Shown: one piece after another, positions 3 through 50,316 of the stretch
How the letters are laid out: every line of letters starts with the position of its first letter
Numbering within the stretch: position 1 is the stretch's first letter
DNA from: Candidatus Omnitrophota bacterium
Lineage (GTDB): Bacteria; Omnitrophota; Gorgyraeia; Tantalellales; Tantalellaceae
Reading direction: 5' to 3'
DNA length: 64,000 bases
NCBI GenBank assembly: GCA_015231405.1
Contig: JADGBR010000003.1
Coordinates: 29,549 to 93,548, forward strand
Translations under genes and position numbers: made by a program
Notes under the pieces: generated by a model
The model's input: only the letters and a program-made list of their open reading frames with translations
Told to the model about the DNA's origin: nothing
Databases searched by the model: none

Positions 3-1100
3 GTGTACGACGATATTCATACGAGGGGGGTCAGGGACCTAAGGGACATCATCGTCGATAATATGCCGCCGGCAGAAGCGGAGGCGTATTTCCTGGACAG
101 TATAGAAAACGTTGCCAGGCAAAGCTTTTCGGACGGGGTGAGGGAAGTGGAGCTGAGATTTAACCCGTTCAAGGAAATGCTTTATACCGATCCCCTGACG
201 GGCGCAAAAGCCGATATCGGGAGCTATGGGATCATCCTTGACGATCTTCTCCGTAAACTTGACGATCGACTCTCGAAGCTTGAGGCTGAAGCCGATAAGG
301 TATTCGGGAAAGACAAAGGCCCGCACAGGGTTGTCTTTATGTTCTCGATAGGAAGGGACAGGCTCGAGGGTGACAGGTTTGTGAAAGGAGAATGGGAGAG
401 AAAATTCGCGATATTATCAGACCTGAAGGAGAAGTACGGGTTCGCGGCTTTTTACGGTGAAAGGTTGTCCGGTGTGGATATAGCCGGTATCGAGCCTTTC
501 GGTAAGGAACAAGGAGATACCCGGGAGACGATATCCGAAAGGGTCAGGGAAAGATTCCATCTTGATCAAATGGCGGTGATACTGAAGCGTCTTAAGGATG
601 CAGGGTACGCGATAACCACGCACCTTGGCTGCAGGTACGGCTCGAGCCCGAGGGACGACGTCATGGGGCACGCCGCCTTTGTCAAGGCCCACCTTGACGC
701 GTGGGGAGATGTCCTTGACAGGGTGGGGCACGGGAAAATATTTACGACCGGCAAGGTCTATTCCGAGAGCGTGGACGGCGCGGATTCGAAGTGGGCCGCG
801 TATGACGAGGCGACGGCCAAAGCGCTCGTTAAAGAGCTTAGGATGAAGGGTATTGCCATTGAGACATGTCCGCAGAAACTTGAGTCGCGGAGCGTTTACC
901 GCATGATGAGAGATCTCCCGAACGTTTCATGGATCGAAAAAGGCGTTAAGGTCGTATACGGGACGGACGGCTCTTACCTGAGCGGCGGGTGCACTCTGTC
1001 GCAGTGGATAACAAGGCTCATGCTGTCGTTCCCCGCCTCCGGAAGAAAATATTTCGGCACCGGCGACATGATGGAAACCGTATCAAGCGTGAAAAAATCC
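3..1100 (+). other. Adenosine/AMP-deaminase-like (metal-dependent amidohydrolase) domain, N-terminally truncated by the window edge.
   Basis: The motifs VREVELRFNPF, ITTHLGC, LDRVGHG, IETCPQKLESRS and VVYGTDGSY match the A_deaminase signature blocks (VEVRF, HAGE-like, RIGHG, CPxSN, TDDP). Confidence 0.6.
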
Positions 1101-4100
1101 GCGGATATTGAGGAGAATATAAACAAGTACTCCGCCGCGGCGTGGGAACATTTTTACAAGGCGGACAGGGAAGGAACTGGCACGGCACTTCTGGTGACTC
1201 CCAACGAATTTCTCAGGAAGACGATCGCTCTGTCGGGGGGTCTGCTGGAGATCAAAGACCCGTATTACATGAGGATGGTCTGCCGCCGAGTGGAAGAGAT
1301 CAGGGAAAAGAATTCGGCGGGGCTGCTTAATGAGCTCTCTGTATCTACGGGCCAGATGAGGGAACAGGTTTCAGAGAGGGCCAGGGGGTATCTGGAGAAA
1401 GGAGAACGAAAGTTCACCGCCGAACAGATCCTAAAGGATTACGAAAGGGTGATAAACAACCTTTTCATACTCCAGTCGGCCTTAATGTATCCCAAAGCCA
1501 TGCTGTGGATATTCCAGTCGTTGTACAGGGAGATGGAGGAGTTCAGACTGAAAAGCGAGTCGGAGAAAAAAGAGACGCCGTTCCTTATCCTCATATCCGC
1601 GACTGATCGTATCGAGTCGCTACGGAACTTTTTCCAAAGCCTTGTTGAGGAGGTAGATACTTTCAATTACGGCCTTACGCTCGAGCTTGGCGGGGACGGC
1701 TCTATCGTCAAGCGGACGGATAAGGTAACGGTCGCTATCATAGAGAACAGCTCTGACCCTCTAGTAGCGGTCCAGAACAGGGAACTTATAGCCGAATACC
1801 GGAATAAAGGGTTAAGGATCGTATATTACGGAGCCGATGAGAAGGTGAAAATAGTTGAAATGATACGAAAAAGGGAAGGGGAGAAAAGCCTTTATTACAG
1901 GTTCGGCATAACGCCGGAAGATCTCGGCCGGGACAAGGTGAAGGCCGTCACCGCCGGGATCAAGAACGCGGGATACAACGCCACGAGGAACTTTTCATTC
2001 GAGGTCGCCCGGGAATGTTTCTCGACCATGCCCGACGATTCCGTGTCGGTGCTCATCGACGATGACGAGATGCTTAATTCGCTCCTCGTGAGCGATGAAG
2101 AAGGAGTGAAGATCGAAAGGCCGTTCAGTTTTTTCCATAACGCCGACAGGTATTACAAGGACCCGGTCCTTGAAGTCCTTTCCGGGAATATCAGCGGTGA
2201 CCCGGCCATAGGCGTCGCCGAGATGCTTCACGGCAACCTGCGTGATCTGAAGGAGTTCCTTGAAAGGACCGCGCTAATGGCCCCGGGAGACGATTATACC
2301 AGAAAAATGTTCGAAGGCGCTTCCCAGGAGCTTTCGGAGAACGTGATGATCGAAAATTTTAACGATTACGGGCAACGGGCCACGTGGAGCGGAAAATCTC
2401 CGATGAGGAGAGGATGGGCTTTTCCCAGGGTGCCGCGGGAAGGCGAAGAACGGACCGTTGGGGCGCAGTTCAGGGCTTTCGCGGATGCGGCCGACCAGAT
2501 GTTCTTCGGGCACCAGGAGACGAGGCCCATAGGGTATTCGCCCGACAGCTACATGACAGACAGCGACAACGCGGTCGTACCTAAAATGGTTTGGTCATTT
2601 TTCGGAACGGGCGGGAACCTGATGCTCAGCAAGAAGCTTATCAATTACGCCGATATGACATGCATGCCAACCGGGAAATGGCGCAGGGAAGACGTCATGC
2701 TCGAGAAGCTTATCGAGGTGTTCTACACACCCGTTAACATGACTTTTCTCCCCGTCAGGCATTCAAGGCTTAAAACAGGGCACAGGATGGGGATAACCCG
2801 GAGAGATACCGGCGAACTGAGCTTCGTCCGGTTCCTGGGGAGCGCATATCACGGTTATATTTTCCAGCGGTTCGTCGAGAGGATATTCGATCTGGAGTAT
2901 ATTGGGTCAATGGAGGATTTTATAAGAGTGGCGACGAAGGCCTCGCTCGGGGAATACCCGGGATTTATGGAATGGTATCTCTCCGTCAAAAAGAGGAGAT
3001 ACGAGAACCTTAAACAATATCTGTCCGACCTTAAAGACATGGCTTTGGAAATGAGGGCGAAAGGGTTCTTCACGGAAAAAAAATACTGGTGGAACAACGA
3101 CCCTTCATACGCCCAGTCCGTGAGGGAGATGGAGATCATCGTGGACTCGATCATAGCCGATATGGACCCGGCCGGAAAAGACTACAGCGAGATGTTCGCT
3201 GAGCTACACAAAAAAACTGAGGACACTACCCTTGCCGACGAACGGAAGGTCGTTGACGAGATGAGAGAGTCGTACCCGCATATGCGCAATTACATGAGGG
3301 AACATCCGTATTCATATACCGACCTTAAAAGGACGGAAGAGATACTTTACAGGAGGTCGGCCAAGGCCGGCGTGAGGACGGTACAGGTCACGATCATGAA
3401 CGAGGCCGGCAGGATGGAACGGATAAGGTTACCGCTACATCTTCGCGGCGCGAGCCGTCTCATAAGCGTTTATATCGCGTCTTCCGTATATAACTTCCTC
3501 GTCCGAAACGGCGCCGGTGAAAAGATCTATATAGCCTGTGATGACGAGCAGGAAGCCAGAGGCGTGGTCAAAAGGGTCAAGAAAACGCTGGAGATATCAG
3601 GCCTCGATTTTACCGTAAGGGGCAACTATAACGTTAAGCTTGTTCCTGCCAGGCGCCGTGATCTAGCTGGGATAAGAGAGGAAGAGAGAACCAGGGAACG
3701 GGAACGCGGCCGTATTTTAAAGAACAGGAAACTCAAGGCCCCGGAAAAAGGCGTGTTCATGTGCCTGGACCTCGGGAAATCCTCGGCAAAGATACTGGTG
3801 CATGACGGGAACGCCGTGGTATATAGCGGAAAGAAGGAAGGGTCATTTTATTATAAACGTACTCCCGGTGACATAAAAAGAGAGATCGGCGTTATTGTAG
3901 ACGAAACTCTTACCGCCCTGGGATATGGTAGAGACAGTTTGAGGGGAGTAACTGTCCTTGTTCCCGATATCGTAGACAAGGCCGGGAATAAAGCCCTGTA
4001 CCTGAAAGGGGAAGACCTTCCGTTCCCGGCCATTGTCAGGCACGATTCCGAGGGGCACGCCGCTTATTTCAGGAATAAAGGCCTGGATAACTTTTATCTC

Positions 4101-7100
4101 CTCGCTTTGGGCACACACCCCGGCACGCAGGCCGTAATATTCGGTAAAACAGCGGATGAGCCGATGGAGATGTCGAGGTCGGTGGTATGTATAGACGGAA
4201 GGGAAAAGCCTGTCGAGCTCCGGGAGCTCTTGTCGACCCAGGCGGTGCTTGAGGAGGGCTTGTTCAAGGGCATTATCGACCATGCCGATAACGAGAGAAA
4301 GGACGAAGCGTTCGCCATCATGGCCCAAAAGGCGGAGGAAGGCGACGAGAGGGCATTATCTCTCCTTAACTATCTGGGTGAATACACGGCTATTCATCTA
4401 GTGAACATGGTGAGGCATATACGCTTCGATAAGGTTGTGTTTTCCGGAGGGATGTGCCGCGGGAAATTCGGTGAAATGCTGGCCGAGAATACCATGAGGT
4501 CGCTTAAAACGAGAGGTTTCGGATGGATAAAGCCGGTCCTCATGGGGGATGAGGATATGCAGCTGGCAGGGGCTCTTGGCGGGATATCTCTGGCCGAAGA
4601 ATACTGGATCGGGCCGGACGAGGACGCGAGGCGGCTCAAGGTATATCACAAGATGATCCTGTCGCTTAAGGACGACGGGGACGCGAGCAAATGGAAAGAT
4701 GTTTTTGACAGGTTCAAGGAAGAAAGCGGCGCAAAGCCCGGTGATTTCGAAAAGGTCAGGATGTGTTTTGAGCGGGATGGGGGTAAATATAACGAATTTA
4801 TTTTCCATCTGCCTTTGAAGATGGCCGGCGCCGAGAGGGAGATAGCCGCGAGATATCTATCCAGCTGGATCAATAAGTTCATCGTGTCCAGGGCCGCTAA
4901 GAAGGTAGTAATAGATACAGCGATAGAGGGCATGTTCAAAGAGATAGAAACGTCTTTCGATGCGGAGTATAACGACCCTAATTCGCAGGTGAGCCTTGCC
5001 AGGACGGTCGGCGAATACTGGGATTCAGGGTCGTTCAGGCTGGAACAATACGCCCAAGGGACAGACCTCGATATAGAGCCTTACATAATGGAAAAAGAGA
5101 CGGCCCTGAAACGCGATACGGCGATCAACAGGTCCGTTAAGGCCATCGGCATTAATGTAGGTAAATACAGGATAAAGATAAGCGTAGTCGAGATCATGGG
5201 GCAGGGGAGATATAAGCATATAGGTAAGATAAAGGACTTCAATACCTGGGAAAAAACGGATGACCGCTCCAGTTTCGATACGCTGTACACAAAGCTGATA
5301 AAAGGGGTAAGGGAAGTCCTGGCAGAGAACGGGCTTTCGGAAAGCGACGTTGACGGCATTGGGATAGCGGCCGCGACAGCCGTAAAGAACGGCCAGCCGC
5401 TTGGGCGTCCCATGGGATTCGCAAGGGGTTTTAACCGTGAGGCGGAGCTCGCCAAGCTCAAGGGCCTTAGAGCGAAGATGTCGGAAGATCTTAGCGGCCT
5501 ACCCGTATTCGTCCGGCACGACGGCGATGTCGAATGCCTAGGCATGGCCCGGTCAAAGGGGATAAGGAATCTTCTAGTGATGAAGTGCGGCAACACTCCG
5601 GGCGTAGGTTTCGTCGAGAATGACGGTAACCTGGCTGAGGGACTGAACGAGTTCGGAAAAGTGGTTACCGATATGGGGCGTGACGCCCTCGCCCACGATA
5701 AGACGGGTGTTAAAGGTGAGGTTGCCAGCTATACCGCGTGGGATGGTACATGCAAGGTGGCGAAAAAGATGGGTCTTTACGAAAAATATAATTTCGGGCC
5801 GGAAGATCCGGTGCCAGGGATTTTACAAGGATGGCTGAACTTGAGGACAGATTCGACTTTTAGCGAGCGTGAGGACGCGCGGAAAGTGTTCCTTCAAAGC
5901 GGAAGGGAAACCGGCAAGTTCGTTGTCGAGATGCTCGACCTGTATCCGATAGAGCATATAGGCGTGTCGGGTGGAGTATATTTCGGCGAGTCCGGAAAAG
6001 CCATGAAAGCCGGCATAGAGGAAATATTCAAGGAGAGCGGTCTCCTTGGAAAGATAAATATCATCATAGACAATTACGATATGGAAAAAATGAAATATAA
6101 CGTGACGCTCGGCGGCGCTTATCTCGTATATGACGCCGTAACGCTCGGCGACGGGGAGATCAAAGCGAAGGATTTGGACCACGCTTCGAGGCTTTTCGGG
6201 ATATCGCCGCGCATACTGAAGCTCAAGGCCCGGATAGCAGAATGGAAATGGGGTGGGAGGACCCGGACGGACGGAAGGCCGTCGGCGATAAGGGAACTTC
6301 TCGGCGAGAGCGCGTCGGACGAGCCCGCTGCCGAAGCCTGGTACGGGGCGCATCCCAAACTTCCAAGCCCGGTCGAGATATTCGGTTTAGATACGACTCT
6401 GGATAAGGTCATGGAACGCGTGTACGAGGTGGTGCTGGGCCCGGAAGTCGTCAAGAGGTTCGGCAAGGTTATGCCCATAATGTTCAAGTTCCTGGACGCG
6501 GCCGAATCCCTATCGATACAGTGCCATCCCGGGAAAGAACAAGCCAGGAGGCTCGCGAGGGAGCGCCCGGGAGTGTACGACGAATTCAATAAGCCTGAGG
6601 CTTTTGTCGCCTGTACTGATGAAGGTTTCAGCTCGCTCGGAGGGGTCCTCCCCATCGACGATTTTATAAAGGTCCTCAAATCTCATTTTCCTGATATCGA
6701 GACAGACTATGCCGCCGAAAAAGATAAAGCGGGATACGACCCCGCTCTATTCGTGAAGAAATACGTAAAGCTCGTGCTGGATAAAGGGAACGGGTTCGCG
6801 GACATAGTGATGCCCGAGCTTCTTAATCAGTATAACGCCAAGAACGGGGAGGTGCTGTACTCGCATGACGGCCATGTTAACGCGCTACTCTCCGGTTTTA
6901 TAGCGGAGATAGAGACGAATTCGGATAACACTTTACGCGCCGCCAAGACAGTGAAGGAAAGGGATATACCAAATTTCCTCGAGGCGGCGGACCTGACCCC
7001 GGCGAGGGAAGAGCTCAGAAAATTCAGGGAGACTGACGATCCGGCGGTAAAGAGCTGCATAACGACCGAAGCTTTCGCGCTGGACCTCGTGAGCCCGGGA

Positions 7101-10100
7101 GAGAACGGGGAAGTCGTCGTAAAGACGAGGGATAGTTTTCATCTTCTGGTGGTTTTTAAAGGCTCTGTGATCATAAGGGGTCCGGACGGGCGGGATATTA
7201 AACTCGAGCGCGGCGAAGCATGCCTTATTCCGGCATTCTTCGAGGAATTCAGGATATTATCCGAAGGGGGAGCGGAAGTTTTCGATTCGTTCGTCCCTGT
7301 AATGGCGAGGAAGGGTATAAACAGGCTCAGCGTTTCGCGAATGCCGGAAGAGGCACATGCGGGATCTCCGGAAGGACAGAGCAATGAGAAGTCCGAGATC
7401 ATGGAGATCGGGAACTGTTTTGAGATAGGGAAGACAGGCAATATGAGGTACGACAAGGCCATGAGCGAAGCCTGCTATGAAATGCGGGAAAGAAGATATA
7501 TTTCAGGCGAACAGTGGAAAAAGGCGGTTGGCTCGGGAGGTGTATCAATCGAAATAGTTCCAGGCCTGGACAACAGGCTTTCAGATATCGTCGAAAAGGA
7601 AGGGAAAAAGGTCATCCTCATTAACAAGGATGTTATGGATTCGGACAGGATCTCGGACGAGGACCTCCGGGTAATTCTCATGTTCGTACTCTCGAGCGCG
7701 ATAGACAGGATAACATTCGGGCTTTTCGCGGAAGATATAAGGCTGCTTGTCCCGTCCGGTGAATCGGAGGTGATGATACTTCTCAGGGATATGGAAAGGC
7801 TCTGGTATAACGGGCGCGGAGGAGAGAATGACAGGAATATATTCCTGAATATTGTCAGGCGCCTGGACACAAACTACTCTTTCCTTTATTACAACACAAG
7901 TTACGCTCTGCTTGCCGAGGGGTTCGAGGCCTATAAGGTCAATCCCCAGGGCCGGCCCGGTTGGTTAAAACTGATCAAAAAATATATCGAGGACAACGCA
8001 GGCGATGGAAAGACTTACAAATATGACGTTTATGACAGGGAAGTGGCCAGTTTCAAAGCTTCGGATTTCTTCGCCCTCAGACGGTGGTTCCGGGGGTATT
8101 ATTTTTACTGGGCGAACGCGGTGGACGAGCGCGATCCGGGAACCGGGATCAATTTTATTTTTGACAGGGCCCAAGATCCGGAGTTCCCGCTCACTCCTCA
8201 TTCGGCCATCATACAGGCCTTGAAACAGCCGGTCGAGAGCCGCGAAACCGCCAGAGCGATGGGAGATAAGGACGACGGCAAAAAAAGAACTTTTCTCGAG
8301 GATACGCTCCTTGCCCTTCACGATTGGGACGATATTGACATGGAGAGGATAGACCGTGTGTATATAAGGTATCTCAAATCCGGGACTTTCAAGGAGGTTT
8401 ATTACGTGCAGGTCATTTTGAAGGATGACTTCGCTAAACCGCTCGAGTTCGCGCTTCTTGTCCCCAGGGAGACCGTCCTCAGGGCAGGATACGATATCTG
8501 TATTTCCCCGTGGGAAATAGACAAGTTAGAAGAGCTTAATAAACATGACAGCGCGCTCGTCCCGAAGCCCGGGTCCCGTGTCACGACGCTCAGTTTTCAT
8601 GACGAGGGGAAAAAACCTTTCTGGCAGAGGCGGGATATGTACAGCATGCAGTATGCCGGGAGGGACACGGTCGGCCTCCTGGACCTTTACGACCTCGAGG
8701 ACGATTCTAAAATACAGGTCCTACGGGACGTCGTCTCGAAATACATCATCCTTTGGCACAGGAACGGCGGTTACGAGTTCATATGCGACCCCACGAACGA
8801 GAATGTCTGTTTCCTCGACTGGGACGGCCGGATAGTGGATATGGGAGCTCCGACCTACGATTACGATATCGTATTCATAATGAGATATCTCTGGGAAAGG
8901 ATATGTTTCGATTCTGACGGGAGATCGTTATTCAGCTATGGGAAAGACAGAGACGAAGGTAAAGAGCGTATACCTGACAGGAGTTTTATCTTTGACGGCG
9001 TCGTAGACGCGTTTGTGCAGTCAAGGAAAGGGGAGGAGGTCGAGGAGGCAGTTACCGCCGGGATAAGGTTTCTCCAGAGGGTCAGGAACTATCCGTCTGT
9101 GGAACTCCCGGAAGAATTCAAGGAAGCCTTGGACGAATATCTTGCGAAATATGGAACTAAGAAACTTGATTATAAGATTCCGGAGCGTATAGAGTATAAG
9201 CCGCTTTCGGAGGTCAACTGGGATGTGGTGGATAAGCTCTGGCGCGAAACTGTCCCGGATAAAGGCTTCCAGCCGAACGCGGTATCCTATTTCGATTTTC
9301 TGGGAGTGAATTACATGGCGAAGAGTTTTATGAGGGCCATAGCGACGAGGGGTTTTCCCTTGCCGGATGTGAATTTTACGGTCCAAGATCTCATCCCGGA
9401 ACAGGAAAACGCCATCCTTGAGCATATGGAATTCCGTTTCAAGAGGGATATGATAACCCCGGACAGGTTGACGCTATTATTTCTCAAATCACTGGCCCTT
9501 AAATATGAGGGTTCGGGCGGCGAAAACATCATTGAGCTTGGTATAAACAACTCCGACCAGTATCTCCGGATCATTAAAAAACTCCAGAAAATAGCAGGCG
9601 GCCGCTTTACGATGAAGGGGGAGAGAAAGGGGTTAAGGGACAAAGCTGGCCTTGAGAAGATACTGGGTATATCCAAACTGAATACCATAGAGAACATCCT
9701 TACAGGCGCGAACCCGAAAGTGATCGTCATTGATGATAAGATATGGTCATCGCTGTCAGGGGACGGACTAAAAGAGGCTTTCACGATACTGAACGATCTT
9801 TTGGGAAAAGAAAGGAGAGTTGTCATAACGTCGGAGCATTCGATAGGGTCGCTCCTTAACCGTTATGTGAAAGGCACGGGCTTGAAAAAAGAGATGTACG
9901 ATAAATTGTCCTTTATCGCCAGGAACGGCAAGGAATTTTCGCGGTACGCTAAGGGGGAGAACGGGGACCCAGGGACATGGAGCGTGGAGGAAGGCATAGG
10001 GTTCGGGAGCGCTGAAATAATGGCTAAGATAAGCATGGAGACGGGCCTGCCTCTCTGGAGTTTCCTCTGCATAGGCGACAAATGGAGCGTTCCCATGGCG

Positions 10101-11648
10101 TCTCTGCCGGGAACAGCCGGGATAGCCGTGGAAGGCGGGAAGATATTCTATTTTATGCCTGGCGACATAAACGTGACGACCGAAGTCGCCGATAACGGCC
10201 TTCTCAGGGTGCTCAGGCTGCTGGATTCGGCCCTTGATATCGCGGGGCCTCTAAGTTCGTCTTCAAGCTACGTGGCGAAAGTGCTGAAATATTCTCTTCC
10301 GGCCTCGTTCGAGACCCAAAAAGAATTCGAAGGGTACGATGACCTCATAAGGCATACCGCGGACAAAATAGAGACGAAACATACGGAGCTGGAAGACGCT
10401 AAGATGTTCGTGAGCATGAGCGGTATGGTCGGAGCGGGCAAAAGCACGGTCTCGTCGAGGGTGGTAGAGGAGCTCGAGAGAAGGGGCAAGAAGGTCATTT
10501 ATCTCGGCGAGGACGAGGTTGTCATATCGCGCGCTATCCGGCGCGAGTGGGAAGTGAGGCTCGACCCGAAGCTGAACGATTTTTACGCGTACCATGACTG
10601 GGATAAATTGAGGGCGATAATAGGCTGGCTGAAAAGTACGGGGAATGGTAAAAAAACATTTGACGGGCTTTACAATAATAAAACGGGAGAATGCGACGGG
10701 AGACGCGAATTCGATATAGACGAGGATACGATAATAATATTTGAGGGGATATATCCGGAAGATACGGATATTTACCCGAAAGAGCTCTTCAACCTGCGGT
10801 TCCATTTCACTATCCCTTTCGACACGTCACTTGAGAGGGACGTTGCGCGGGTGCTTGAGCGTTCAGACAGAACGGAGATGGAAGCCAGGGTCAAATCAAA
10901 AGCCCTCTGGGGTACTTTGACGGGACTATTCCTAAAATGCAGGGACATGATAAAGAGAGGAGATTGCGAGATAATAGACATGTCCGACCTAATGGCTCCG
11001 AGACTCATTAGGTATAAGAGCACGGCCATGGGTGGGCCCCGGATGAGGAAAAGAAATCCGAAGATCACTTTACCTGAAGGATTTTCCGATACCGAGCCGT
11101 CGGTGGTCCTTAAAAAAGATGTTCTAAAAGAGTATTTAGATGACAAACGGTCGTACAGGATAAGGTACGATACCGCCAGACTTTCACTGTCTCAGCAAAA
11201 AATACTGGAAACGTACGCCTCTGTCATGGGCAGGGATATTAAGCTAGCCCCCTACATCGGTCGAGACGGGAGCATGGAGCCTCTTGTCACGGTGTTCGCG
11301 GAAGGAACGGACGGGTTTAAAGGCGAAGCGAGCGTCGAGGTGAAAGTGCCCGAAGGCTCGATTGGAGAATATTTCCTCAGGATTACGGGGATATTGAATA
11401 TAGCCATGGCTGCTTCGAACCTGGAGGCGGGTAAAGGCGCCACGGTGGGCTCGGAAATGAGCAACGGACCGATAATGGGTTTTATCAGGGAACAGTACAG
11501 AAAGATCACCGGACGTGACCCGGACGCTGACGGCGTTATGTACGATGTATCGAACATGAAAATAGAACTTCCGGAGTCTTACAAAATGAGTATGGCTCTA
11601 ATTGAGGAATTTAACGAACTCGCTTCGAAGGCGCTCGTCGCGGCTTAA
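3..11648 (+). CDS. Giant multidomain protein, 5'-partial. The ORF is open to the window edge; at least 3881 aa lie in the window. It is a mosaic of enzyme-like domains (see the sub-features below).
   Basis: A single uninterrupted + frame runs from position 3 to the TAA at 11646-11648. The adenosine-deaminase-like domain at the start lacks its N-terminal HxH segment, so the gene continues upstream. Multiple recognisable catalytic motifs are present along its length. Confidence 0.85.
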   Translation: MYDDIHTRGVRDLRDIIVDNMPPAEAEAYFLDSIENVARQSFSDGVREVELRFNPFKEMLYTDPLTGAKADIGSYGIILDDLLRKLDDRLSKLEAEADKVFGKDKGPHRVVFMFSIGRDRLEGDRFVKGEWERKFAILSDLKEKYGFAAFYGERLSGVDIAGIEPFGKEQGDTRETISERVRERFHLDQMAVILKRLKDAGYAITTHLGCRYGSSPRDDVMGHAAFVKAHLDAWGDVLDRVGHGKIFTTGKVYSESVDGADSKWAAYDEATAKALVKELRMKGIAIETCPQKLESRSVYRMMRDLPNVSWIEKGVKVVYGTDGSYLSGGCTLSQWITRLMLSFPASGRKYFGTGDMMETVSSVKKSADIEENINKYSAAAWEHFYKADREGTGTALLVTPNEFLRKTIALSGGLLEIKDPYYMRMVCRRVEEIREKNSAGLLNELSVSTGQMREQVSERARGYLEKGERKFTAEQILKDYERVINNLFILQSALMYPKAMLWIFQSLYREMEEFRLKSESEKKETPFLILISATDRIESLRNFFQSLVEEVDTFNYGLTLELGGDGSIVKRTDKVTVAIIENSSDPLVAVQNRELIAEYRNKGLRIVYYGADEKVKIVEMIRKREGEKSLYYRFGITPEDLGRDKVKAVTAGIKNAGYNATRNFSFEVARECFSTMPDDSVSVLIDDDEMLNSLLVSDEEGVKIERPFSFFHNADRYYKDPVLEVLSGNISGDPAIGVAEMLHGNLRDLKEFLERTALMAPGDDYTRKMFEGASQELSENVMIENFNDYGQRATWSGKSPMRRGWAFPRVPREGEERTVGAQFRAFADAADQMFFGHQETRPIGYSPDSYMTDSDNAVVPKMVWSFFGTGGNLMLSKKLINYADMTCMPTGKWRREDVMLEKLIEVFYTPVNMTFLPVRHSRLKTGHRMGITRRDTGELSFVRFLGSAYHGYIFQRFVERIFDLEYIGSMEDFIRVATKASLGEYPGFMEWYLSVKKRRYENLKQYLSDLKDMALEMRAKGFFTEKKYWWNNDPSYAQSVREMEIIVDSIIADMDPAGKDYSEMFAELHKKTEDTTLADERKVVDEMRESYPHMRNYMREHPYSYTDLKRTEEILYRRSAKAGVRTVQVTIMNEAGRMERIRLPLHLRGASRLISVYIASSVYNFLVRNGAGEKIYIACDDEQEARGVVKRVKKTLEISGLDFTVRGNYNVKLVPARRRDLAGIREEERTRERERGRILKNRKLKAPEKGVFMCLDLGKSSAKILVHDGNAVVYSGKKEGSFYYKRTPGDIKREIGVIVDETLTALGYGRDSLRGVTVLVPDIVDKAGNKALYLKGEDLPFPAIVRHDSEGHAAYFRNKGLDNFYLLALGTHPGTQAVIFGKTADEPMEMSRSVVCIDGREKPVELRELLSTQAVLEEGLFKGIIDHADNERKDEAFAIMAQKAEEGDERALSLLNYLGEYTAIHLVNMVRHIRFDKVVFSGGMCRGKFGEMLAENTMRSLKTRGFGWIKPVLMGDEDMQLAGALGGISLAEEYWIGPDEDARRLKVYHKMILSLKDDGDASKWKDVFDRFKEESGAKPGDFEKVRMCFERDGGKYNEFIFHLPLKMAGAEREIAARYLSSWINKFIVSRAAKKVVIDTAIEGMFKEIETSFDAEYNDPNSQVSLARTVGEYWDSGSFRLEQYAQGTDLDIEPYIMEKETALKRDTAINRSVKAIGINVGKYRIKISVVEIMGQGRYKHIGKIKDFNTWEKTDDRSSFDTLYTKLIKGVREVLAENGLSESDVDGIGIAAATAVKNGQPLGRPMGFARGFNREAELAKLKGLRAKMSEDLSGLPVFVRHDGDVECLGMARSKGIRNLLVMKCGNTPGVGFVENDGNLAEGLNEFGKVVTDMGRDALAHDKTGVKGEVASYTAWDGTCKVAKKMGLYEKYNFGPEDPVPGILQGWLNLRTDSTFSEREDARKVFLQSGRETGKFVVEMLDLYPIEHIGVSGGVYFGESGKAMKAGIEEIFKESGLLGKINIIIDNYDMEKMKYNVTLGGAYLVYDAVTLGDGEIKAKDLDHASRLFGISPRILKLKARIAEWKWGGRTRTDGRPSAIRELLGESASDEPAAEAWYGAHPKLPSPVEIFGLDTTLDKVMERVYEVVLGPEVVKRFGKVMPIMFKFLDAAESLSIQCHPGKEQARRLARERPGVYDEFNKPEAFVACTDEGFSSLGGVLPIDDFIKVLKSHFPDIETDYAAEKDKAGYDPALFVKKYVKLVLDKGNGFADIVMPELLNQYNAKNGEVLYSHDGHVNALLSGFIAEIETNSDNTLRAAKTVKERDIPNFLEAADLTPAREELRKFRETDDPAVKSCITTEAFALDLVSPGENGEVVVKTRDSFHLLVVFKGSVIIRGPDGRDIKLERGEACLIPAFFEEFRILSEGGAEVFDSFVPVMARKGINRLSVSRMPEEAHAGSPEGQSNEKSEIMEIGNCFEIGKTGNMRYDKAMSEACYEMRERRYISGEQWKKAVGSGGVSIEIVPGLDNRLSDIVEKEGKKVILINKDVMDSDRISDEDLRVILMFVLSSAIDRITFGLFAEDIRLLVPSGESEVMILLRDMERLWYNGRGGENDRNIFLNIVRRLDTNYSFLYYNTSYALLAEGFEAYKVNPQGRPGWLKLIKKYIEDNAGDGKTYKYDVYDREVASFKASDFFALRRWFRGYYFYWANAVDERDPGTGINFIFDRAQDPEFPLTPHSAIIQALKQPVESRETARAMGDKDDGKKRTFLEDTLLALHDWDDIDMERIDRVYIRYLKSGTFKEVYYVQVILKDDFAKPLEFALLVPRETVLRAGYDICISPWEIDKLEELNKHDSALVPKPGSRVTTLSFHDEGKKPFWQRRDMYSMQYAGRDTVGLLDLYDLEDDSKIQVLRDVVSKYIILWHRNGGYEFICDPTNENVCFLDWDGRIVDMGAPTYDYDIVFIMRYLWERICFDSDGRSLFSYGKDRDEGKERIPDRSFIFDGVVDAFVQSRKGEEVEEAVTAGIRFLQRVRNYPSVELPEEFKEALDEYLAKYGTKKLDYKIPERIEYKPLSEVNWDVVDKLWRETVPDKGFQPNAVSYFDFLGVNYMAKSFMRAIATRGFPLPDVNFTVQDLIPEQENAILEHMEFRFKRDMITPDRLTLLFLKSLALKYEGSGGENIIELGINNSDQYLRIIKKLQKIAGGRFTMKGERKGLRDKAGLEKILGISKLNTIENILTGANPKVIVIDDKIWSSLSGDGLKEAFTILNDLLGKERRVVITSEHSIGSLLNRYVKGTGLKKEMYDKLSFIARNGKEFSRYAKGENGDPGTWSVEEGIGFGSAEIMAKISMETGLPLWSFLCIGDKWSVPMASLPGTAGIAVEGGKIFYFMPGDINVTTEVADNGLLRVLRLLDSALDIAGPLSSSSSYVAKVLKYSLPASFETQKEFEGYDDLIRHTADKIETKHTELEDAKMFVSMSGMVGAGKSTVSSRVVEELERRGKKVIYLGEDEVVISRAIRREWEVRLDPKLNDFYAYHDWDKLRAIIGWLKSTGNGKKTFDGLYNNKTGECDGRREFDIDEDTIIIFEGIYPEDTDIYPKELFNLRFHFTIPFDTSLERDVARVLERSDRTEMEARVKSKALWGTLTGLFLKCRDMIKRGDCEIIDMSDLMAPRLIRYKSTAMGGPRMRKRNPKITLPEGFSDTEPSVVLKKDVLKEYLDDKRSYRIRYDTARLSLSQQKILETYASVMGRDIKLAPYIGRDGSMEPLVTVFAEGTDGFKGEASVEVKVPEGSIGEYFLRITGILNIAMAASNLEAGKGATVGSEMSNGPIMGFIREQYRKITGRDPDADGVMYDVSNMKIELPESYKMSMALIEEFNELASKALVAA
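3750..4620 (+). other. ROK/glucokinase-like (ASKHA fold) sugar-kinase-like domain 1.
   Basis: An N-terminal phosphate loop MCLDLGKSSAKILVHDG and a C-terminal glycine-rich VVFSGGMCRGKFGEML are typical of the ROK/ASKHA fold. Confidence 0.45.
5150..6130 (+). other. ROK/glucokinase-like (ASKHA fold) domain 2.
   Basis: The motifs KISVVEIMGQGRY, DGIGIAAATAVKNG, LLVMKCGNTPGVGFVENDGNL and HIGVSGGVYFGESG match the ROK family motif pattern. Confidence 0.5.
6280..7330 (+). other. Type I phosphomannose isomerase (ManA-like cupin) domain.
   Basis: AWYGAHPKLPSP matches ManA ELWMGAHP. KFLDAAESLSIQCHPGKEQA matches the PMI type I SIQAHP zinc motif. A C-terminal cupin segment GEACLIPA follows. Confidence 0.65.
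8600..8900 (+). other. Aminoglycoside-phosphotransferase/protein-kinase-like catalytic core.
   Basis: LWHRNGGYEFICDPTNENVCFLDWDG matches the Brenner HxDxxxxN motif followed by a DFG-like DWD. Confidence 0.4.
10380..11000 (+). other. Uridine-kinase/phosphoribulokinase-like P-loop NTPase domain.
   Basis: Walker A VSMSGMVGAGKSTVS and the downstream IIIFEGIYPED match the PRK/UK family motif. Confidence 0.55.
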
Positions 11649-11663: not shown

Positions 11664-14600
11664 ATGGGATCTAACGGGATAAAGAAGATTTACGGAAAAT
11701 ATATAATAAGAATGGTTTCGGCGGCGCTCGTCTCTCTGATGGTCGCGAACGACATCGGCTACGCCCTTTCCCCGGGATCACGTTTTACCGAAGAGTCCGG
11801 ACCAGGACGGAACGAGCTGTTCAAGGGAGCGGTTTTCAGGGTAGTGTATGAGATCATCGGGAAGTACCTTGAGATGGGTATCGATCCCGTGACGATCATT
11901 GGCGATATAAAGGAAGGGATAGGTATTGTCGAGGAAGCTTTCCGGAGGGAAGAGGGGCTTCCCTCGTCCGCGAAAACCGCCAATTTCGACCCTCTTCTTT
12001 ACGGATTCAATATCGACGAGCTCGAATATTCCCCAGTAGAAAAAGCCTTCAGGCTGCCCATCTACCGGGGAGGCCAAAAGATCCACACCTACAAATTCTA
12101 CATGACCCGAACGCCCGATAAAGAGCCCGATCACACCATCGAACTCCCAACCGGCCACCCCCTCTACGCCAGCATCGAACTCAGGGACAGTCCCCATAGG
12201 GACACCCTTACGCACGGAAACTCAGAAAATTCCTCGAATTCCGGAAATGATGCCCACGGGGCTATTAGACGGAACGTAAGTAACGAAGATATAGAAGCAG
12301 CCATTGACGGAGACTTGGATCTTCAAAGCGTCAAGGATGAAATATCTATGATCGATATCATATTCAACGATATGGCGCTCGATACGAACGTGGATCTTGA
12401 AAAGAAAGCCGAAGAGTATGGTGTAACGGCGGACGAGCTAGTGAAAAGGATAAAACTCGCCAGGGAGGTGTTCTCGGAAGGCCGGAGAAGCCAGGCGAAG
12501 TTCAAGTTATTTAACGCCATTATCAGGAACCCGTCGACATACGCTTTTGGTTACGTGAAGCCTGGGGTCTTCGCGTATTCCCGGGAATTTATAAATGACC
12601 TGGGGCATGATCTTAAAGCGGAATACCTCATGCATGAGCCTCTTTGTTATTACCTGTCGGAATTGATAGGTGAAGAGAAAGGGCATAAATTGGCGAGGGA
12701 GATCCAGTCCTTGTACTTCTACTCCAATTATGGCCCGACGGGAGACAGGGAGTTAGACCCATATGACTGGTTGCGAGGGAAACTGACCGATTTTATACGG
12801 GACTTTACTATACGGGTGCTCGAGAAAGAAAAGAAAATGCCGGAACTTGATCTTGGCGTTCTGGATAAATGGGTTGATGCCCAGGCAAAGGCCGAACAGG
12901 CGCACCTTAGAGCGCTCAGATTGAGATTGACTGAGTTGATCCTTATGAAAGGTTCGCTCAATGAGGTGATAATTGACGAAAAAAGATCGAATTCCGGATT
13001 TACCGCGTCAAATAAACATTTATTGAGCGACATGACCCGGAAGGTCAAAGACCTGGTTAAATTTATCGAAGATGTGCTTCCGGTAATAACCGTAGCTGAG
13101 AGGGAAGGGTTGGGGTATCTGATCAGATCCAGGGCGGAAAATGACAGGTTCAGGAGAGTAGCTATTGAAATAGGCCTCGGGGTCCTTGGGAAAGGGAGTG
13201 GAGAGAAATATCCGGTTCTCGAAATATTCAGCGAACACCTTAAAAAGTTTGAGACGACTCTTAGAGGGGAGAAATCGGAAGTATTTACCCGGCGCCTAGC
13301 CGCGCATATCAAGTGGTGCGAAAGCATAGAAAAAGAACTTGCCCGGCTCCAGAAGGAGTCATTACCATCGGGAGCTTTAGCGAAGAAAGGCGAGCATCGA
13401 GGATCGATCAGCCGGGACACCCAGGAAAAGTCTATGGTCCATGGACCATTGTCCATTGTCCCTGCCTCGCCGGCAGGCAGGCATGGTCAATCGTCCATGG
13501 TCCCCGAAGCACAACGGGTTACACCAAAAATCGGGGATCGCGGGTCGAAGACGTCGCTCAGGGCGAAGATCCTGGCCTGCGCGTTCCTGGTGGGGGTTAT
13601 CCTGGTTGTCGAACCATTGATGGTTTACGGCATGAACTGGTTGATCCCTAAACGGTTCATAGCTGATATTTTCCCGCTCGGGTTCGCTTCGGGCGCCTTG
13701 GAATTCGGTACGGTAAAAACTTTTACGGCTTTTGTCGTATTCAGGTTCTTTGGAGAGATCCTGGCACAGGTAGCCGTCAGGTGGATGAAGGAAGGGATAA
13801 AAGGGATAAGTTTAAAACGGGACATAGACTGGTCGAAGGTGCGGGTCGTATGCTACTTCGCGGGCGGATTCCTCAGCTGGTTCCTGCCTTCCGTTTGGGG
13901 CGTATTTAAGGCCTCTTCGCTTGATCCGCGTTTGTACGGGTTTGCTGATCTGATAGTCGCCGGGCCCATAACGCTGCCCGTCCTCTTCGGTGCGCATCTT
14001 TTCATGAAATGGGCTTATACGCGCGAGAAAATGGATCCGGGGAAGTCGCTCAAAGAAACATTTTACAGGATAGGGTTCACGTTCGTTTTCGCGATAGTGT
14101 ATTGGTGCACTATCCTGGGGATGGTATTTTCGACCGATAGGCCGCTGGACGAGCAGGCGTATATCATCGCATACTTCACGCCGTTCTACGCCATCGCGCA
14201 AAGTTTCGCGGCTAATTTAACCGATGTGGGTAAGGGCGTTAAGATGCGAAAATGGGCGCTGCCTATGATAGCCGCGGCGGTGTTATACAACTTAAGGTAT
14301 TTCTTTTTTAACCTTTCGAACACAAATCTAATAGTCGGGTTCGCGCTCTGGGCTATTCCTATAACGCTCGGGTTCAGACTGAACAAGCCCCTGGGCCCGG
14401 TCTGGGCGACGGCGCCGGAGGAAGACGGCATTTATCGGAAAATATCGGACCATTTGGCCAAAGATCCCGGGGATATGACCATAGTCGTGCCGGAAGCGGC
14501 GTCAGAGAGCGCACTTAAGGGGATTGATAGGATAATAGCTAAATACGGTGATAAGGTAAAGCCCATACTGATCGGCAACGCCGGCGATATAGAAAAAATT

Positions 14601-17600
14601 ATGCTCACGCAAAAACTCGACCATCTTATAAAGTCGAGCCGGAAGGAGATTATAAATATAAACGATAAGGGCGAGATCTATGAGGAGACGGTCAGGATCG
14701 TGGGTGAAGGCCGGGCGAGGATAATCCTCAAAGGAAAAAGCTCGTCGGATGTTCTCATGAAAATGATACTGACCGCGGGCAAGAAAAGACTGCGTGTTCC
14801 GGGGAGCAGCATAACGCATATGCGCCTATTCGAGATGCCGGACGGCGGGCCCTTACTTATGACGGACGGCGGTATAAACGTCATGTCCGATACGGAAGAC
14901 GCTGACAAAAGGGTAGCCAAAAAGATAGCCGGAATAGACAATTCCGTGAGGGTTATGCGCCATCTGGGTGTAACTAGGCCCTTAGTGACCATTCTGGCCG
15001 AAGGGAAGAACGGCGAAAAATGGATACGTGAGGACGCCGAGGGGATAATTTCAGAGCTTAAGAAGAGGGGAGTCGATCCGGGGTTTGATATCGAAGGGCC
15101 CGTATCGCTCGGGGAAGTATACGGCCGAGGTAACTTATCCCGGCGCATCCTTGTTTTTCCTTGGATAGGCCCCGCGAACATCATTTATAAAGCAACGGCC
15201 GGATTCAGGAGGGAACCGGAACATGTGAAAGATATTCCGGTACGAACAGCTTCCGGGAAAAAGGGAAAACTCAGCGTCTTCGAATATCAAATTGACGGCA
15301 CGAAGCGTTATCTTTCCGTGGCCGTCCCCCCTCCGGGGGCGGACCTGGAGGAAAAAAAGGAATTCATAAAAAGATCCAGCAGGATGCTTTTTAAAAAATA
15401 TGGCATAGGAAAGCCTAAAGTGGCTATATTGGATTTCACCGAGCAAGCTGAAAATTTCGAGAAAGTGCCTACGATAAAGGACGGGATAGCGCTCAAGAAG
15501 TACTTTTCGGAAAGAGACGCCGGATGCGTGGTCGACGGCCCAATGGCATACGACGTCGCTGATTCGAAAGAGGCGGCCAAGGCGAAGGGGTATGACTCCG
15601 TAGTCGCTGGGGACGCGGATATGTATTTCGCCCCGGATAACGATACCGGGAACATGCTTGAATCCCTGTATAAATATTCCGGCAAATTGAAGTTGGGTTG
15701 GAACGCCTCCGACCTTTCATACGGTGGCCTCGCGACGGACAATGGCGAACCGGTTTTTGTGGTGGTCCCATCGAGATCGGACTCTGAGTTCCACAAAGAG
15801 CGGTCGCTAGACGTCGCGGCGGAACTCATGTCACGCGACCGGGAAGAAGGAGTTAACATCCGCCCGGAGGGCAAAGGAACCCCCGGAAAATCTCCCCCCG
15901 GCGGATCCATAGCTGAAGCGCTCAAGGTGGTCAACGTGTCGCTGCTCAAGGAAGGAACTTTAGGGAATATATTCACGCGTCGGGAATTCGCCCAGAAAAG
16001 GATCAATGCCAAGAGACAGGCACAATATTCGCCTGGCACGGTTGCGGCGGAGCTGGATTCATTGACGAGAATAGGGGTACTGGACCGTGTTCGTGACGGC
16101 CTGGCCTATAAATATTACGTGAGGGACTGGTACAAGGACATAAGGCCCGGGGTAAGGAAAAAGTTACAAGTTATGGTCGAAAATGCCGTGAGGGCAAAGG
16201 AAGTCAGGGCAAATCCTCTGGATGAGAAAGATCTTTTATTCCTGCAGAACGCCCTGGTGAAGATGATGAAACGGTATTACAGCGCCACGGTCTTTTCGAT
16301 AATACCCGAAAAACAAAAAAACCGTGTTATGGAACAGATCGTGGACATGGAATGCCATTTTTGCGATACACCGCGTGAAAGGAAGAAGTGGACCGCCTAT
16401 CATACTTACATGGCCGGCGAGCCCGAGAGGGAGACAAGGATAGTGCGATACAACAATAAGGTCATAGGTCTTATGCTTTTTAAGCGGGATACCGGAAATG
16501 ACTGTATCAGAATATTGAGGATGAAGATCCACCCGGAATGGGAAGACAAGGGCGTAGATCATTACCTTGTGGACACGGTTAAGGCGGAGATGGTCGAAGG
16601 CGGGGGTTTGGGGAAATGCCGGGTCATATTGAACGAGAACGACATCAATGCCTGGGAGTTTTACAGAAGCGCGGGATTCAGGTCTCTGGAGAAGAGAGGA
16701 GAGGGCGCCCGCGGATTGGATGTAATGGAGTTCATGCCTGGAATTTCTACCGATGAGAACGGATCGAGTCAAGAAGATGTTCTCTTGGTCAGGAACGCCA
16801 TAGAGAGCGCGTATCACGACCTCGCCGAACGGTTCATGGAAGTGCCGGTTGAGCGGCTCGACAAGGATATGGATCCCGAGCTTATCAAGTCGGGGTATAA
16901 GTACACTGCCAGGACAAGCGGACGAGAAGTGGAATTTTCCGATATGTTCGAGGCGGGCGATCGGGAAGGTAAAAAGGCGATTGGAGCCATGAGGATCGTA
17001 TACGGTGAGGTTTATACGTCAGGCGAGATAGCCGAGGCGGCTAAAGAATACGGGATGCGTTACAGCTCCCCGGAATATATCAACCGTGTAGCCGTGATCA
17101 ATGGTGAAGTGGCAGGGTACATCAGATGCCGGCTTCTGATGAACGGGATGAAAGTTGATTTTGAGGAAAGGATATTTGATCAGAGGTATAACGGCATAGG
17201 GATCGGTGATCTTCTGATAAACGATTTGAAGATACTTCTTTCGACGCGGGCATACTCAGGGTTCGGTAAATGCGTAACATCTTTTCGTTCGCCGCAGGGA
17301 CGGCGCATGGTTGACTATTTGGGTAAGCACGGATTCAGGCCCGTTAACGGGCATAATAAGAAGTTTATTCTTGAAGGTGCTGACATCACTAAGATAAGCG
17401 GCCCCGAAGGGACTATCATCACGGATACCCTTTTCCAGGGAGGCGCGAGCCCGATATTGACTTACGGGCAACCCTATGAACTCCCGGAAGACGAGGAAGG
17501 CGGAACCGGACATGATAAGGATCCGCTGGACGGCTTGTACTTCATGACCGAAAGGCCCGAAATGGCTGAAAGAACGGTCAATTTCATAAAAACATTCCTT

Positions 17601-46887: not shown

Positions 46888-46912
46888 CGACCGCGAAAGG
46901 ATCGATCAGGAT
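46876..46912 (+). promoter_or_regulatory. 9-bp stem hairpin (atcctgatc / gatcaggat, 19-nt loop) overlapping the SD and start codon of the DUF2779-like gene.
   Basis: Read from the sequence. The stem's 3' arm includes the first two bases of the ATG (46911-46913), and the loop contains the SD aaagga. Confidence 0.35.
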
Positions 46913-48449: not shown

Positions 48450-48464
48450 AGGAGGATAACTGAT

Positions 48465-49664: not shown

Positions 49665-50316
49665 TCAGGGGATATGCTGTTTTATCTCTCTTCCCGACAG
49701 CCGGAGTACGGAATTTATCGGTGAGCTCATCAGGCATTTCAGCGATGATGATCATGATCTCATACTGGGTTTCGTGGGTTTCAATAACCTGGAGGAGAAG
49801 GAATATAAAAAATATGAGGTTGAGATACTGAAGAGGAGCGCGGGGTATAAATTCGGCTATGTCGGATTTGATCCCGGTATTAAGGTTCTGTTCGAGAGAA
49901 TGATGAAGGGGCTTTTCACCCCCGTAATAAATGGGGTGAAGGCCTATCGCATGAGCGGGGAGATGCGGGATCATTTTATCCGGAACTATTTGGCTAAACT
50001 AAAACGCGCGCGTGGGACTATCTGGGACCTGGGTGTTTACAGGAACGACAGCCCGGTCATGGAATGCCATGACGATCTTACCGCTATAACATTTTACGAT
50101 GAAAATGAGATCAATGCCGGGTTCCTGGATAAGATGATCGACCGGAACATATTGGCGAACTACGCTATCACGGAAAAAGCGCCGGAAAATTTCATATGCC
50201 CCGGATGCGGAAGACCGAGCATCGATCAGTACCTCGTAGTAGCGAAAAACTTCACGCCGTCTGGTGACAATTTCGTTTGCGGGAGATGCTATAATAAAAT
50301 ATCCGTGACAATATAA
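49648..50316 (+). CDS. Hypothetical protein (222 aa) with a C-terminal zinc ribbon; it overlaps the upstream gene by 17 nt.
   Basis: The ATG at 49648 lies inside the end of the DUF2130-like gene, which suggests translational coupling. The C-terminus is CPGCGRPS...CGRCYNK. Confidence 0.6.
   Translation: MTWSADQGICCFISLPDSRSTEFIGELIRHFSDDDHDLILGFVGFNNLEEKEYKKYEVEILKRSAGYKFGYVGFDPGIKVLFERMMKGLFTPVINGVKAYRMSGEMRDHFIRNYLAKLKRARGTIWDLGVYRNDSPVMECHDDLTAITFYDENEINAGFLDKMIDRNILANYAITEKAPENFICPGCGRPSIDQYLVVAKNFTPSGDNFVCGRCYNKISVTI

Follow-up and report, generated by a model that had tools for sequence, protein, structure and literature searches.

A chain of about 4,300 residues built from enzyme-derived modules, some with remodeled active sites, in Candidatus Omnitrophota

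Omnitrophota are widespread, host-dependent nanobacteria, and the role that the metabolic-enzyme domains of their very long proteins have outside the cytoplasm is a puzzle. Here we describe a stretch of 64,000 nucleotides (nt) from a Candidatus Omnitrophota metagenome-assembled genome (MAG; assembly GCA_015231405.1, contig JADGBR010000003.1, forward-strand positions 29,549 to 93,548), hereafter the window, and above all its first open reading frame (ORF), ORF1. The large ORFs of the window are all on the forward strand, which is purine-rich throughout (Table 1). We propose, with a probability of roughly 0.6, that ORF1 covers the C-terminal 90% of one Omnitrophota chain of about 4,300 amino acids (aa), which would be exported and act outside the cytoplasm, and whose enzyme-derived modules would in part be non-catalytic. 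This protein is a compact case of the puzzle: it measures 4.3 thousand aa (kaa) rather than 30–150 kaa, it has a complete ortholog, and its list of modules is short, with each module small enough for separate expression and assay.

Table 1. Features of the window. Nucleotide positions count from the first letter of the window, and aa positions within ORF1 from its first residue in the window.
Feature	Residues of ORF1	Position (nt)	Strand	Remarks
ORF1		3–11648	+	last 3,881 codons and stop of an approximately 4,300-aa protein; 5′ end beyond the window
ADA-like metal-hydrolase (amidohydrolase) domain	1–390	3–1172	+	sub-threshold profile and motif order
Possible GT-A-type glycosyltransferase-like segment	522–700	1566–2102	+	motif inspection only (FLILISATDR..., VAIIENSSD, LIDDDEM)
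ROK-like sugar kinase 1 (ASKHA fold)	1248–1540	3744–4622	+	PF00480 and motifs
Two-part module	1545–2045	4635–6137	+	N-terminal subdomain of about 170 aa (RYLSSWINKF), then ROK-like kinase 2
Type I phosphomannose isomerase (catalytic and cupin parts)	2071–2423	6213–7271	+	TIGR00218, PF20511, PF21621
Conserved region	2450–2760	7350–8282	+	no profile match
Possible protein-kinase-like or APH-like small-molecule kinase	2780–3010	8340–9032	+	motifs only
Faint HAD-like segment	3236–3420	9708–10262	+	VIVIDDKIW, VITSEHS, CIGDKW; canonical DxD dyad absent
PRK / uridine-kinase / PanK-type P-loop kinase-like domain	3465–3625	10395–10877	+	PF00485, PDB profile, Foldseek
Conserved C-terminal domain	3700–3881	11100–11645	+	alignment; no profile match
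ORF2		11664–21461	+	3,265 aa, MBF0215924.1 (HQL30_02900); PTA_PTB and GNAT; multi-module giant
ORF3		22010–42865	+	6,951 aa, MBF0215926.1, annotated "AAA family ATPase"; AAA_5 and NHL/beta-propeller repeats
ORF4		43011–45272	+	753 aa, TTG start as listed; hydrophobic segment near aa 39; C-terminal DUF6973
Run of ordinary-sized genes		46911–52704	+	DUF2779, DUF2130, 222-aa ORF, 734-aa CheR/methyltransferase-like protein
ORF8		53013–61934	+	2,973 aa, MBF0215936.1; clear signal peptide (...LGVAFA, then END); faint RHS-repeat match, otherwise Pfam-dark

Over window positions 3–11648 the ORF1 frame is open up to its terminal stop codon, whereas the two remaining forward frames contain 235 and 193 stops; from base composition the probability of meeting no stop across 3,881 codons is about 1e-87. 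Because there is no upstream stop in this frame within the window, and because homology reaches the very first residue of ORF1, the gene must extend 5′ of the window. Its full extent can be judged from an ortholog, P0151 (4,320 aa), which is collinear with ORF1 from end to end at 46% identity (a single tblastn high-scoring segment pair of 3,912 columns). Residue 1 of ORF1 aligns with residue 441 of P0151, and therefore about 440 residues lie outside the window. ORF1 is a single chain, with the same order of modules from the N to the C terminus as its ortholog. An initial reading of this DNA from its letters alone (the sequence-only reading) had described one polypeptide running upstream of the window, and in this it was right.

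The ortholog is encoded on a 28.6-kb metagenome contig of the Joint Genome Institute (JGI; 3300033148, Ga0366832_1003767) that has 42% GC, where its neighbors are of the housekeeping type (a Pterin_bind protein, an acyltransferase, FKBP and LpxD). We found no counterpart of ORF2 beside it, nor counterparts of the other ORFs of the window on that contig. Because the chain is collinear in two diverged genomes with different neighborhoods, it has been inherited as one gene. A chimera of separate genes, created by assembly or annotation, was considered and rejected, given the single open frame and a collinear ortholog that comes from an independent sample with a different GC content and different neighbors.

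ORF1 has almost no close relatives, and its sequence is highly unique. The ortholog was reached through an exhaustive HMMER search, with aa 1231–2430 as the query, against 1.84 billion protein representatives. This search returned P0001 (46% identity, E 4e-286), a copy of P0151 that carries a frameshift. A word-indexed protein search using aa 1190–2450 and aa 1–400 gave no match, although the collection contains the 46–57% identical ortholog, with many exact words in common, so for this family such nulls do not amount to absence; scans of genome contigs and of metagenome contigs were also empty. Identity to P0151 varies along the chain, being highest in the ADA-like domain (56%), followed by the kinase-like region (54%), the region at aa 522–1190 (48%), the P-loop module (40%) and the conserved region at aa 2450–2760 (38%). 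In the ortholog cluster (P0151, P0001 and P0152; L003 4990–17952) there is also a 59-kb contig on which the gene calls split the ortholog into products of 2,693 and 1,608 aa. The 2,693-aa product ends in an out-of-frame tail, reflecting either a sequencing frameshift or a true disruption of the gene in that population.

BLASTP finds no internal repeats in ORF1; the chain is made up of many different enzyme folds, none of which predominates in copy number. It also finds no paralogy between ORF1 and the other giant proteins of the window, so the neighbors are not duplicates of ORF1. A hydropathy scan of the 3,881 aa seen gave no convincing transmembrane (TM) helix, and the sole hydrophobic stretch (aa 2557–2575) contains charged residues. 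The PRK-type domain was the only match in PDB profile searches made with two-sequence alignments. AlphaFold2 (AF2) models, likewise built from two-sequence alignments, reached a mean predicted local distance difference test score (pLDDT) of 36.9 and 40.8, and the N-terminal model gave no significant match in Foldseek. Because the AF2 models are poor, aa 400–1190, 2450–3450 and 3650–3881 are left without an assignable fold.

The sequence-only reading had placed modules resembling enzymes of sugar and nucleotide metabolism on one chain, and this is borne out by profile evidence for the phosphomannose isomerase (PMI), ROK and PRK-type modules. The motifs it quoted are all present (LDRVGHG at aa 238, CPQKLES at aa 289, SIQCHP at aa 2171, HRNGG at aa 2919, DWDG at aa 2939, GAGKST at aa 3477 and IIIFEGI at aa 3577). 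Its broader statement, that each module has the hallmark catalytic motifs of its family, does not hold. One PMI ligand is changed from His to Asn, the second ROK-like module has Asn for Asp, and the ADA-like domain has HLGC for HAGE and TDG for TDD. These replaced sites are common to the ortholog, in which, in addition, the P-loop GAGKST has become RAGTSP. A profile check of each domain, which that reading had suggested, gave a divided answer: PMI and the PRK-type module score above their cut-offs and ROK is supported through relatives, whereas the ADA-like domain stays below threshold and the APH-like kinase has no match at all.

For the PMI module, the equivalog model TIGR00218 gives 146.8 bits (cut-off 116.2), with profile positions 4–354 of 359 matched. 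PF20511 scores 70–74 bits (cut-off 22), PF21621 scores 26.8 bits, and the best PDB matches are 1pmi, 5nw7 and 2wfp. From these scores we regard the homology to PMI as certain. The zinc ligands of 1pmi, which we take to be Gln111, His113, Glu138 and His285, are partly kept: the Gln and the first His are found in LSIQCHP and the Glu in NKPE, and the SDNxxR motif is also retained. The fourth ligand is changed from His to Asn (GHVNALLSG) in ORF1, in P0151 and in a fragment, P0003. At that site the family alignment shows His-Ala retained in 15 canonical PMIs and in P0005 and P0010. A His two residues upstream of the replaced ligand is found in ORF1 only.

Two ROK-type sugar kinases in ORF1 are supported by way of their relatives. 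The first falls 0.1 bit short of the PF00480 cut-off in ORF1 itself (22.8 bits against 22.9) and reaches 36.3 bits in the orthologous P0001. Its motifs (DLGKSS for phosphate-1, VRHDSEG with the catalytic Asp, LGTHPG for phosphate-2 and FSGGM for adenosine) are conserved in the ortholog, where the N-terminal half of the module also gives faint BcrAD_BadFG and FGGY_N matches. The second shows the corresponding series GINVGK (with Asn for the phosphate-1 Asp), VRHDGD, CGNTPG and VSGGV. It has no Pfam match of its own; a member of its family, P0009, matches the whole Pfam ROK profile at 32.7 bits, the family profile matches 3eo3, an N-acetylmannosamine kinase of the ROK type, at E 1e-3, and the two ROK-like modules of ORF1 are similar to each other at E 2e-4.

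The family of the second module is uncharacterized. Its members (among P0002–P0018) are two-part proteins or regions of about 500 aa with an RYL.A.INN motif in the N-terminal subdomain, and P0002, P0004, P0006–P0009, P0011, P0014 and P0015 were recovered by HMMER at E 1e-78 to 1e-31. Some of the relatives stand alone (P0002, P0008 and P0009) and some are fused to other domains, namely PGM (P0004), GHMP kinase (P0006), PMI (P0013) and M54 peptidase (P0012). Others are embedded in longer proteins (4,734 and 5,356 aa); the 5,356-aa protein is named as coming from an Elusimicrobia MAG. The family keeps the catalytic Asp in NDG[DN], but the position of the phosphate-1 Asp is taken by N, E or S (Asn in ORF1, Ser in P0151). 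The zinc-binding Cys motif of ROK proteins, presumably CxCGxxGCxE, occurs in neither ROK-like module of ORF1, each of which has three scattered Cys.

The P-loop module scores 22.8 bits with PF00485 in the context of the whole protein and 27.4 bits as an isolated segment (cut-off 22; profile positions 2–143 of 196). The NCBIfam kinase and udk models give 18–22 bits, and the PDB profile match is to 1rz3, at E 2.9e-4. This is the only part of the AF2 model that is moderately confident, and from it Foldseek leads to PanK, PRK, Udk (uridine-cytidine kinase) and 3c8u at E 8e-6 to 1e-4. Taken together, these results support a match at the level of the family and do not single out uridine kinase. The Walker A motif is intact in ORF1 (GMVGAGKST, with GAGKST at aa 3477–3482, window positions 10431–10448). 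In P0151 its lysine is lost (RAGTSP), and that protein gives no PF00485 match; judging from this pair, at least one lineage can evidently do without the nucleotide-binding site.

The ADA-like domain is cut by the start of the window, which removes about 80–100 aa, including the HxH motif. The sequence-only reading had cautioned that the ADA zinc ligands were incomplete in the window, and indeed HxH is found only upstream, in the ortholog (DLHTHIS). PF00962 reaches 21.1 bits in ORF1 and 25.7 in the ortholog against a cut-off of 27, covering profile positions 214–319 of 330 only, and the NCBIfam ADA models give 14–18 bits. A PDB search with this domain found no ADA, and hhalign against E. coli Add produced a local match only (IAIESCPQK...VVYGTDG; E 8.6e-4, probability 24%). 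The ADA-like motifs do occur in order: VDIAGIE (aa 158) for DLAGDE, THLGC (206) for HAGE, RVGHG (240), ETCPQKLES (287) and YGTDG (319) for NTDD, with E(T/S)CPQK.ES standing for E.CP.SN. A deaminase-like metal-hydrolase fold is thus likely at aa 1–390.

In ADA the metal is held by HxH, by the His of HxxE and by the Asp of TDD, and there are in addition a catalytic Glu and a second Asp (mouse ADA numbering). In both orthologs the His is kept (THLGC), as is GHG, the Glu becomes Cys, and TDD becomes TDG. The pairing of HLGC with HAGE follows the order of the motifs rather than a scored alignment. If it is right, the metal ligands would be kept, the catalytic Glu would be Cys and the second Asp would be Gly. 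Deaminase activity was considered for this domain and not accepted, because on this pairing neither ortholog would retain the catalytic Glu or the second Asp.

Neither aa 2700–3100 nor the orthologous segment has a Pfam, NCBIfam or PDB profile match; hhalign against E. coli SrkA was negative (E 0.14), and pLDDT in the AF2 model is below 50 here. An APH-like kinase had been read from the HRNGG and DWDG motifs, which in the ortholog are HRL and DWH. That call has neither profile nor hhalign support, and its HRN and DWD are not conserved. The same region carries GTFKEVY, VQVILK (with the beta-3 Lys), CDPTNEN (D-x4-N) and IVDMG (DxG), and K2807, D2929, N2934 and D2946 are invariant in the ortholog. 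A protein-kinase-like reading of aa 2780–3010 through VQVILK, CDPTNEN and IVDMG is possible, and would fit better than an APH-like reading through HRN...DWD.

Among the remaining parts of the chain, the conserved region that opens with the GT-A-like segment runs on to about aa 1190 (nt 3572). The segment itself shows a beta/alpha pattern in the AF2 model of the ortholog (pLDDT 55–76) and has no Pfam, PDB or Foldseek support. For the HAD-like segment, PF00702 gives 15 bits, in the ortholog only. The C terminus reads ...ALVAA in ORF1 and ...ALIAA in the ortholog.

The evidence for export comes from the start of the ortholog. P0151 begins with MKTKSIKYISAILIVVFIVQTNCYG, followed by LAPLL after the putative cleavage point. 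By inspection, this start resembles a Sec signal peptide, with its basic n-region, 12-residue hydrophobic core and small residues at −3/−1. The N terminus can be taken as real because an in-frame stop lies five codons upstream of the ATG. A domain of about 330 aa follows the signal peptide, and both are seen in the ortholog only. Signal-peptide-like starts are also present on four neighboring giants in the window, ORF2, ORF3, ORF7 and ORF8.

ORF2 begins 15 nt after the ORF1 stop, and the two genes are probably co-transcribed; besides its signal-peptide-like start, ORF2 has four hydrophobic segments, at aa 636–820. ORF2, ORF3, ORF5, ORF6, ORF8 and the 222-aa ORF are identical to proteins in the MBF02159xx series from a MAG that NCBI names "Candidatus Omnitrophica bacterium", where they lie on a contig of 178,336 bp (by exact sequence, ORF5 is MBF0215932.1, ORF6 is MBF0215933.1 and the 222-aa ORF is MBF0215934.1). 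ORF1 is presumably the locus tag before HQL30_02900, because that tag belongs to ORF2, and the protein is already in GenBank within this annotated MAG. The exact product of ORF4 is absent from the protein collection, so its annotated start may differ.

In ORF3, an AAA_5 domain (dynein/MoxR-type) near aa 2137–2274 is followed, over thousands of residues, by beta-propeller repeats (NHL, SGL, lactonase and others), an organization of the tandem-repeat-scaffold type. The run of ordinary-sized genes at 46911–52704 is the part of the window with the lowest GC content (0.45–0.46 against about 0.50), and it could be an inserted mobile or defense-type islet between giant genes. There are no GH2 genes flanking ORF1 in the window, and the window contains no tRNA or Rfam family.

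How might such a chain work? In the reading that we prefer, it would run from a signal peptide and the domain of about 330 aa through the ADA-like domain, a large conserved region (perhaps with a GT-A-like start), the two ROK modules and PMI, and then through the kinase-like region, the faint HAD-like segment and the PRK/uridine-kinase-type P-loop module to the conserved C-terminal domain. It would be exported by Sec, to judge from the N terminus of the ortholog and the signal-peptide-like starts of the neighboring giants. It may then act at the cell surface, or where the cell meets the host or prey that Omnitrophota, with their reduced metabolism, depend on, and there bind and partly convert hexoses and nucleosides. 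One coherent step, from hexose to hexose-6-phosphate and on to fructose-6-phosphate (mannose-6-phosphate to fructose-6-phosphate), could be carried out by the ROK modules together with PMI. Because the remodeled active sites are conserved between the orthologs, some modules are probably binding or scaffold parts rather than enzymes. The substrates, the location, the export and the division into catalytic and other modules are what we infer from sequence. The conserved substitutions give concrete predictions as to which modules should be inactive, which should still be active and which should depend on a metal.

Several points weigh against this proposal. The N terminus of ORF1 itself is outside the window, and the export claim is carried by an ortholog that is 46% identical. 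Both AF2 models are poor and about half of the chain is without a fold assignment, while the ADA-like, GT-A-like, kinase-like and HAD-like calls depend on weak profiles or on motifs. Type II/IV secretion genes and pilus genes have been reported beside Omnitrophota giants, and there are none in the window. When ORF1 is set against the "Archaeovorins", no HEAT or dockerin domain is found in it. The length, about 4.3 kaa (4,320 aa as judged from the ortholog), is below the working threshold of 10,000 aa given in the available text of a catalog of Omnitrophota long proteins (Nielsen and Lui 2026, bioRxiv 10.64898/2026.06.07.730766). Finally, ATP-dependent kinases placed outside the cytoplasm would have no obvious supply of ATP, and this problem keeps alive both delivery to a host and a chain of pseudo-enzymes.

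A more specific version of the proposal is possible. An exported chain with systematically remodeled sites, and with a P-loop that appears optional, might serve, outside the cytoplasm of its producer, as a metabolic effector in or on the host that captures its hexoses and nucleosides, or as a surface array of pseudo-enzyme receptors for host metabolites or glycans. We offer this as a speculative possibility; if true, it would provide a testable handle on the metabolic domains of Omnitrophota giants.

The rival that survives best, which the sequence-only reading had named as its alternative, is that of an effector chain delivered into or onto a host or prey, whose modules would drain or rewire host metabolism in the host cytoplasm. 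There the host would supply ATP, sugar phosphates and nucleosides, and the ATP problem would be removed. It also suits the description of Omnitrophota as host-dependent or predatory, the signal peptide of the ortholog, and the position of ORF1 in a run of giants with signal-peptide-like starts, including the NHL/beta-propeller giant and the faint-RHS protein. However, profile scans identified no toxin, translocation or secretion-system component in ORF1 or the window, and the gene of the ortholog sits among housekeeping genes. We consider delivery of this kind unlikely.

A second rival was the main idea of the sequence-only reading: a cytoplasmic, substrate-channeling multi-enzyme, with all modules active, whose product would be a new or modified nucleotide-sugar or antibiotic-like small molecule. 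It has chemistry in its favor, as the ROK, PMI and nucleoside-kinase-like modules, together with the possible GT-A and HAD segments, fit nucleotide-sugar metabolism, relatives of the second ROK-like module are fused to PGM, GHMP kinase and PMI, and the kinases need ATP, which is cytoplasmic. It conflicts, however, with the signal peptide at the verified N terminus of the ortholog. Catalytic positions have changed from His to Asn in PMI, from Asp to Asn or Ser in the second ROK-like module, and from Glu to Cys and Asp to Gly in the ADA-like domain; the Walker A Lys is lost in the ortholog. In addition, Pfam and NCBIfam profiles detected no nucleotidyltransferase or mutase in ORF1 that would complete a nucleotide-sugar route. 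Of the readings considered, a channeled cytoplasmic pathway is the least compatible with a signal peptide and remodeled sites, and it is distinctly unlikely.

Least probable of all is a pure scaffold, an adhesin- or lectin-like surface protein in which the folds would be kept solely as sugar-binding, nucleotide-binding or structural parts without any catalysis: canonical catalytic or metal positions are indeed substituted in four modules, in common between the orthologs, the P-loop differs between them, and the whole family of the second ROK-like module is without the phosphate-1 Asp (N, E or S), but at 46% overall identity the PMI Gln, His and Glu, KPE and SDNxxR, both Asp of the first ROK-like module, the HDGD of the second and the K/D/N/D of the kinase-like region are all invariant, the Walker A of ORF1 is intact, and PMI scores above its equivalog cut-off.

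It remains to compare the exported, partly non-catalytic chain that we favor with systems that are already known, and we start with single modules. Canonical type I PMIs (ManA; C. albicans 1pmi, Salmonella 2wfp) share with the module of ORF1 the full-length match over the equivalog cut-off, the Gln-His and Glu ligands, and SDNxxR. They differ from it in that the ORF1 module is embedded in a chain of 4.3 kaa and has Asn as the fourth ligand. ROK kinases (e.g., the ManNAc kinase domain of GNE, 3eo3/2yhw) have the same order of ASKHA motifs and the catalytic Asp of (E)NDGN/HDGD, whereas the modules of ORF1 are without the Cys zinc motif, and the second is also without the phosphate-1 Asp and has the additional N-terminal subdomain of about 170 aa. 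GNE as a whole (an epimerase plus a ROK kinase) is a precedent for the fusion of a ROK kinase to a sugar enzyme of the same pathway, and it is the best solved relative of the family of the second ROK-like module. However, GNE is a cytoplasmic, two-domain protein with intact sites, whereas here there are at least eight modules, a signal peptide in the ortholog, and remodeled sites.

Comparison with other giant proteins of the phylum relies on the available text of two works. West-Roberts et al. (2023, bioRxiv 10.1101/2023.11.21.568195) describe Omnitrophota giants with TPI, GPI, FBPase, PGM/PMM, aldolase (FBA), PPDK, glycosyltransferases (GTs) and GNAT in predicted extracellular regions. These giants resemble ORF1 in their sugar-phosphate enzyme domains, and they too raise the question of what metabolic enzymes do outside the cell. 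They differ in being at least 30 kaa long, in the dominance of HEAT/TPR repeats or dockerins, and in having lytic transglycosylase-like domains, none of which were found in ORF1. The Archaeovorins of the same work (at least 30 kaa, HEAT/TPR-rich, with no dockerin and with GT5/GT1 domains) were considered as a home for ORF1 and rejected, given its length of about 4.3 kaa and the lack of a HEAT, TPR, GT5 or GT1 Pfam match.

Nielsen and Lui (2026, bioRxiv 10.64898/2026.06.07.730766) distinguish, in the text available, a "multi-enzyme metabolic cluster" class of Omnitrophota long proteins with a sugar-metabolism module that includes ROK (44 proteins). They report that 94% of the cataloged long proteins have a signal peptide or TM helices and that 80% are sequence singletons. 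With this class ORF1 shares the phylum, the tiled metabolic folds, the ROK content, HAD and GNAT nearby, the signal peptide of the ortholog, and the small number of relatives. It differs in having no internal TM helix in the part seen and no flanking secretion, pilus or GH2 genes in the window, and that text does not name PMI, ADA-like or PRK-like modules for the class.

Across both works, as far as their available text goes, the modules reported include ROK, PGM/PMM, GT, HAD, GNAT, TPI, GPI, FBPase and PPDK (bioRxiv 10.1101/2023.11.21.568195; 10.64898/2026.06.07.730766). The sequence-only reading had said that such a fusion is not a known pathway enzyme; the architecture does have a precedent in these descriptions of long multi-enzyme proteins. 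In the same text we found no mention of the combination of ADA-like, two ROK, PMI and PRK-type modules conserved as an orthologous gene of 4.3 kaa. Because long multi-enzyme proteins of Omnitrophota have already been described, ORF1 does not found a new category. By taxon and architecture it belongs with them as a new, mid-sized example, one that confirms the published observations and slightly extends them to proteins below the 10-kaa cut-off.

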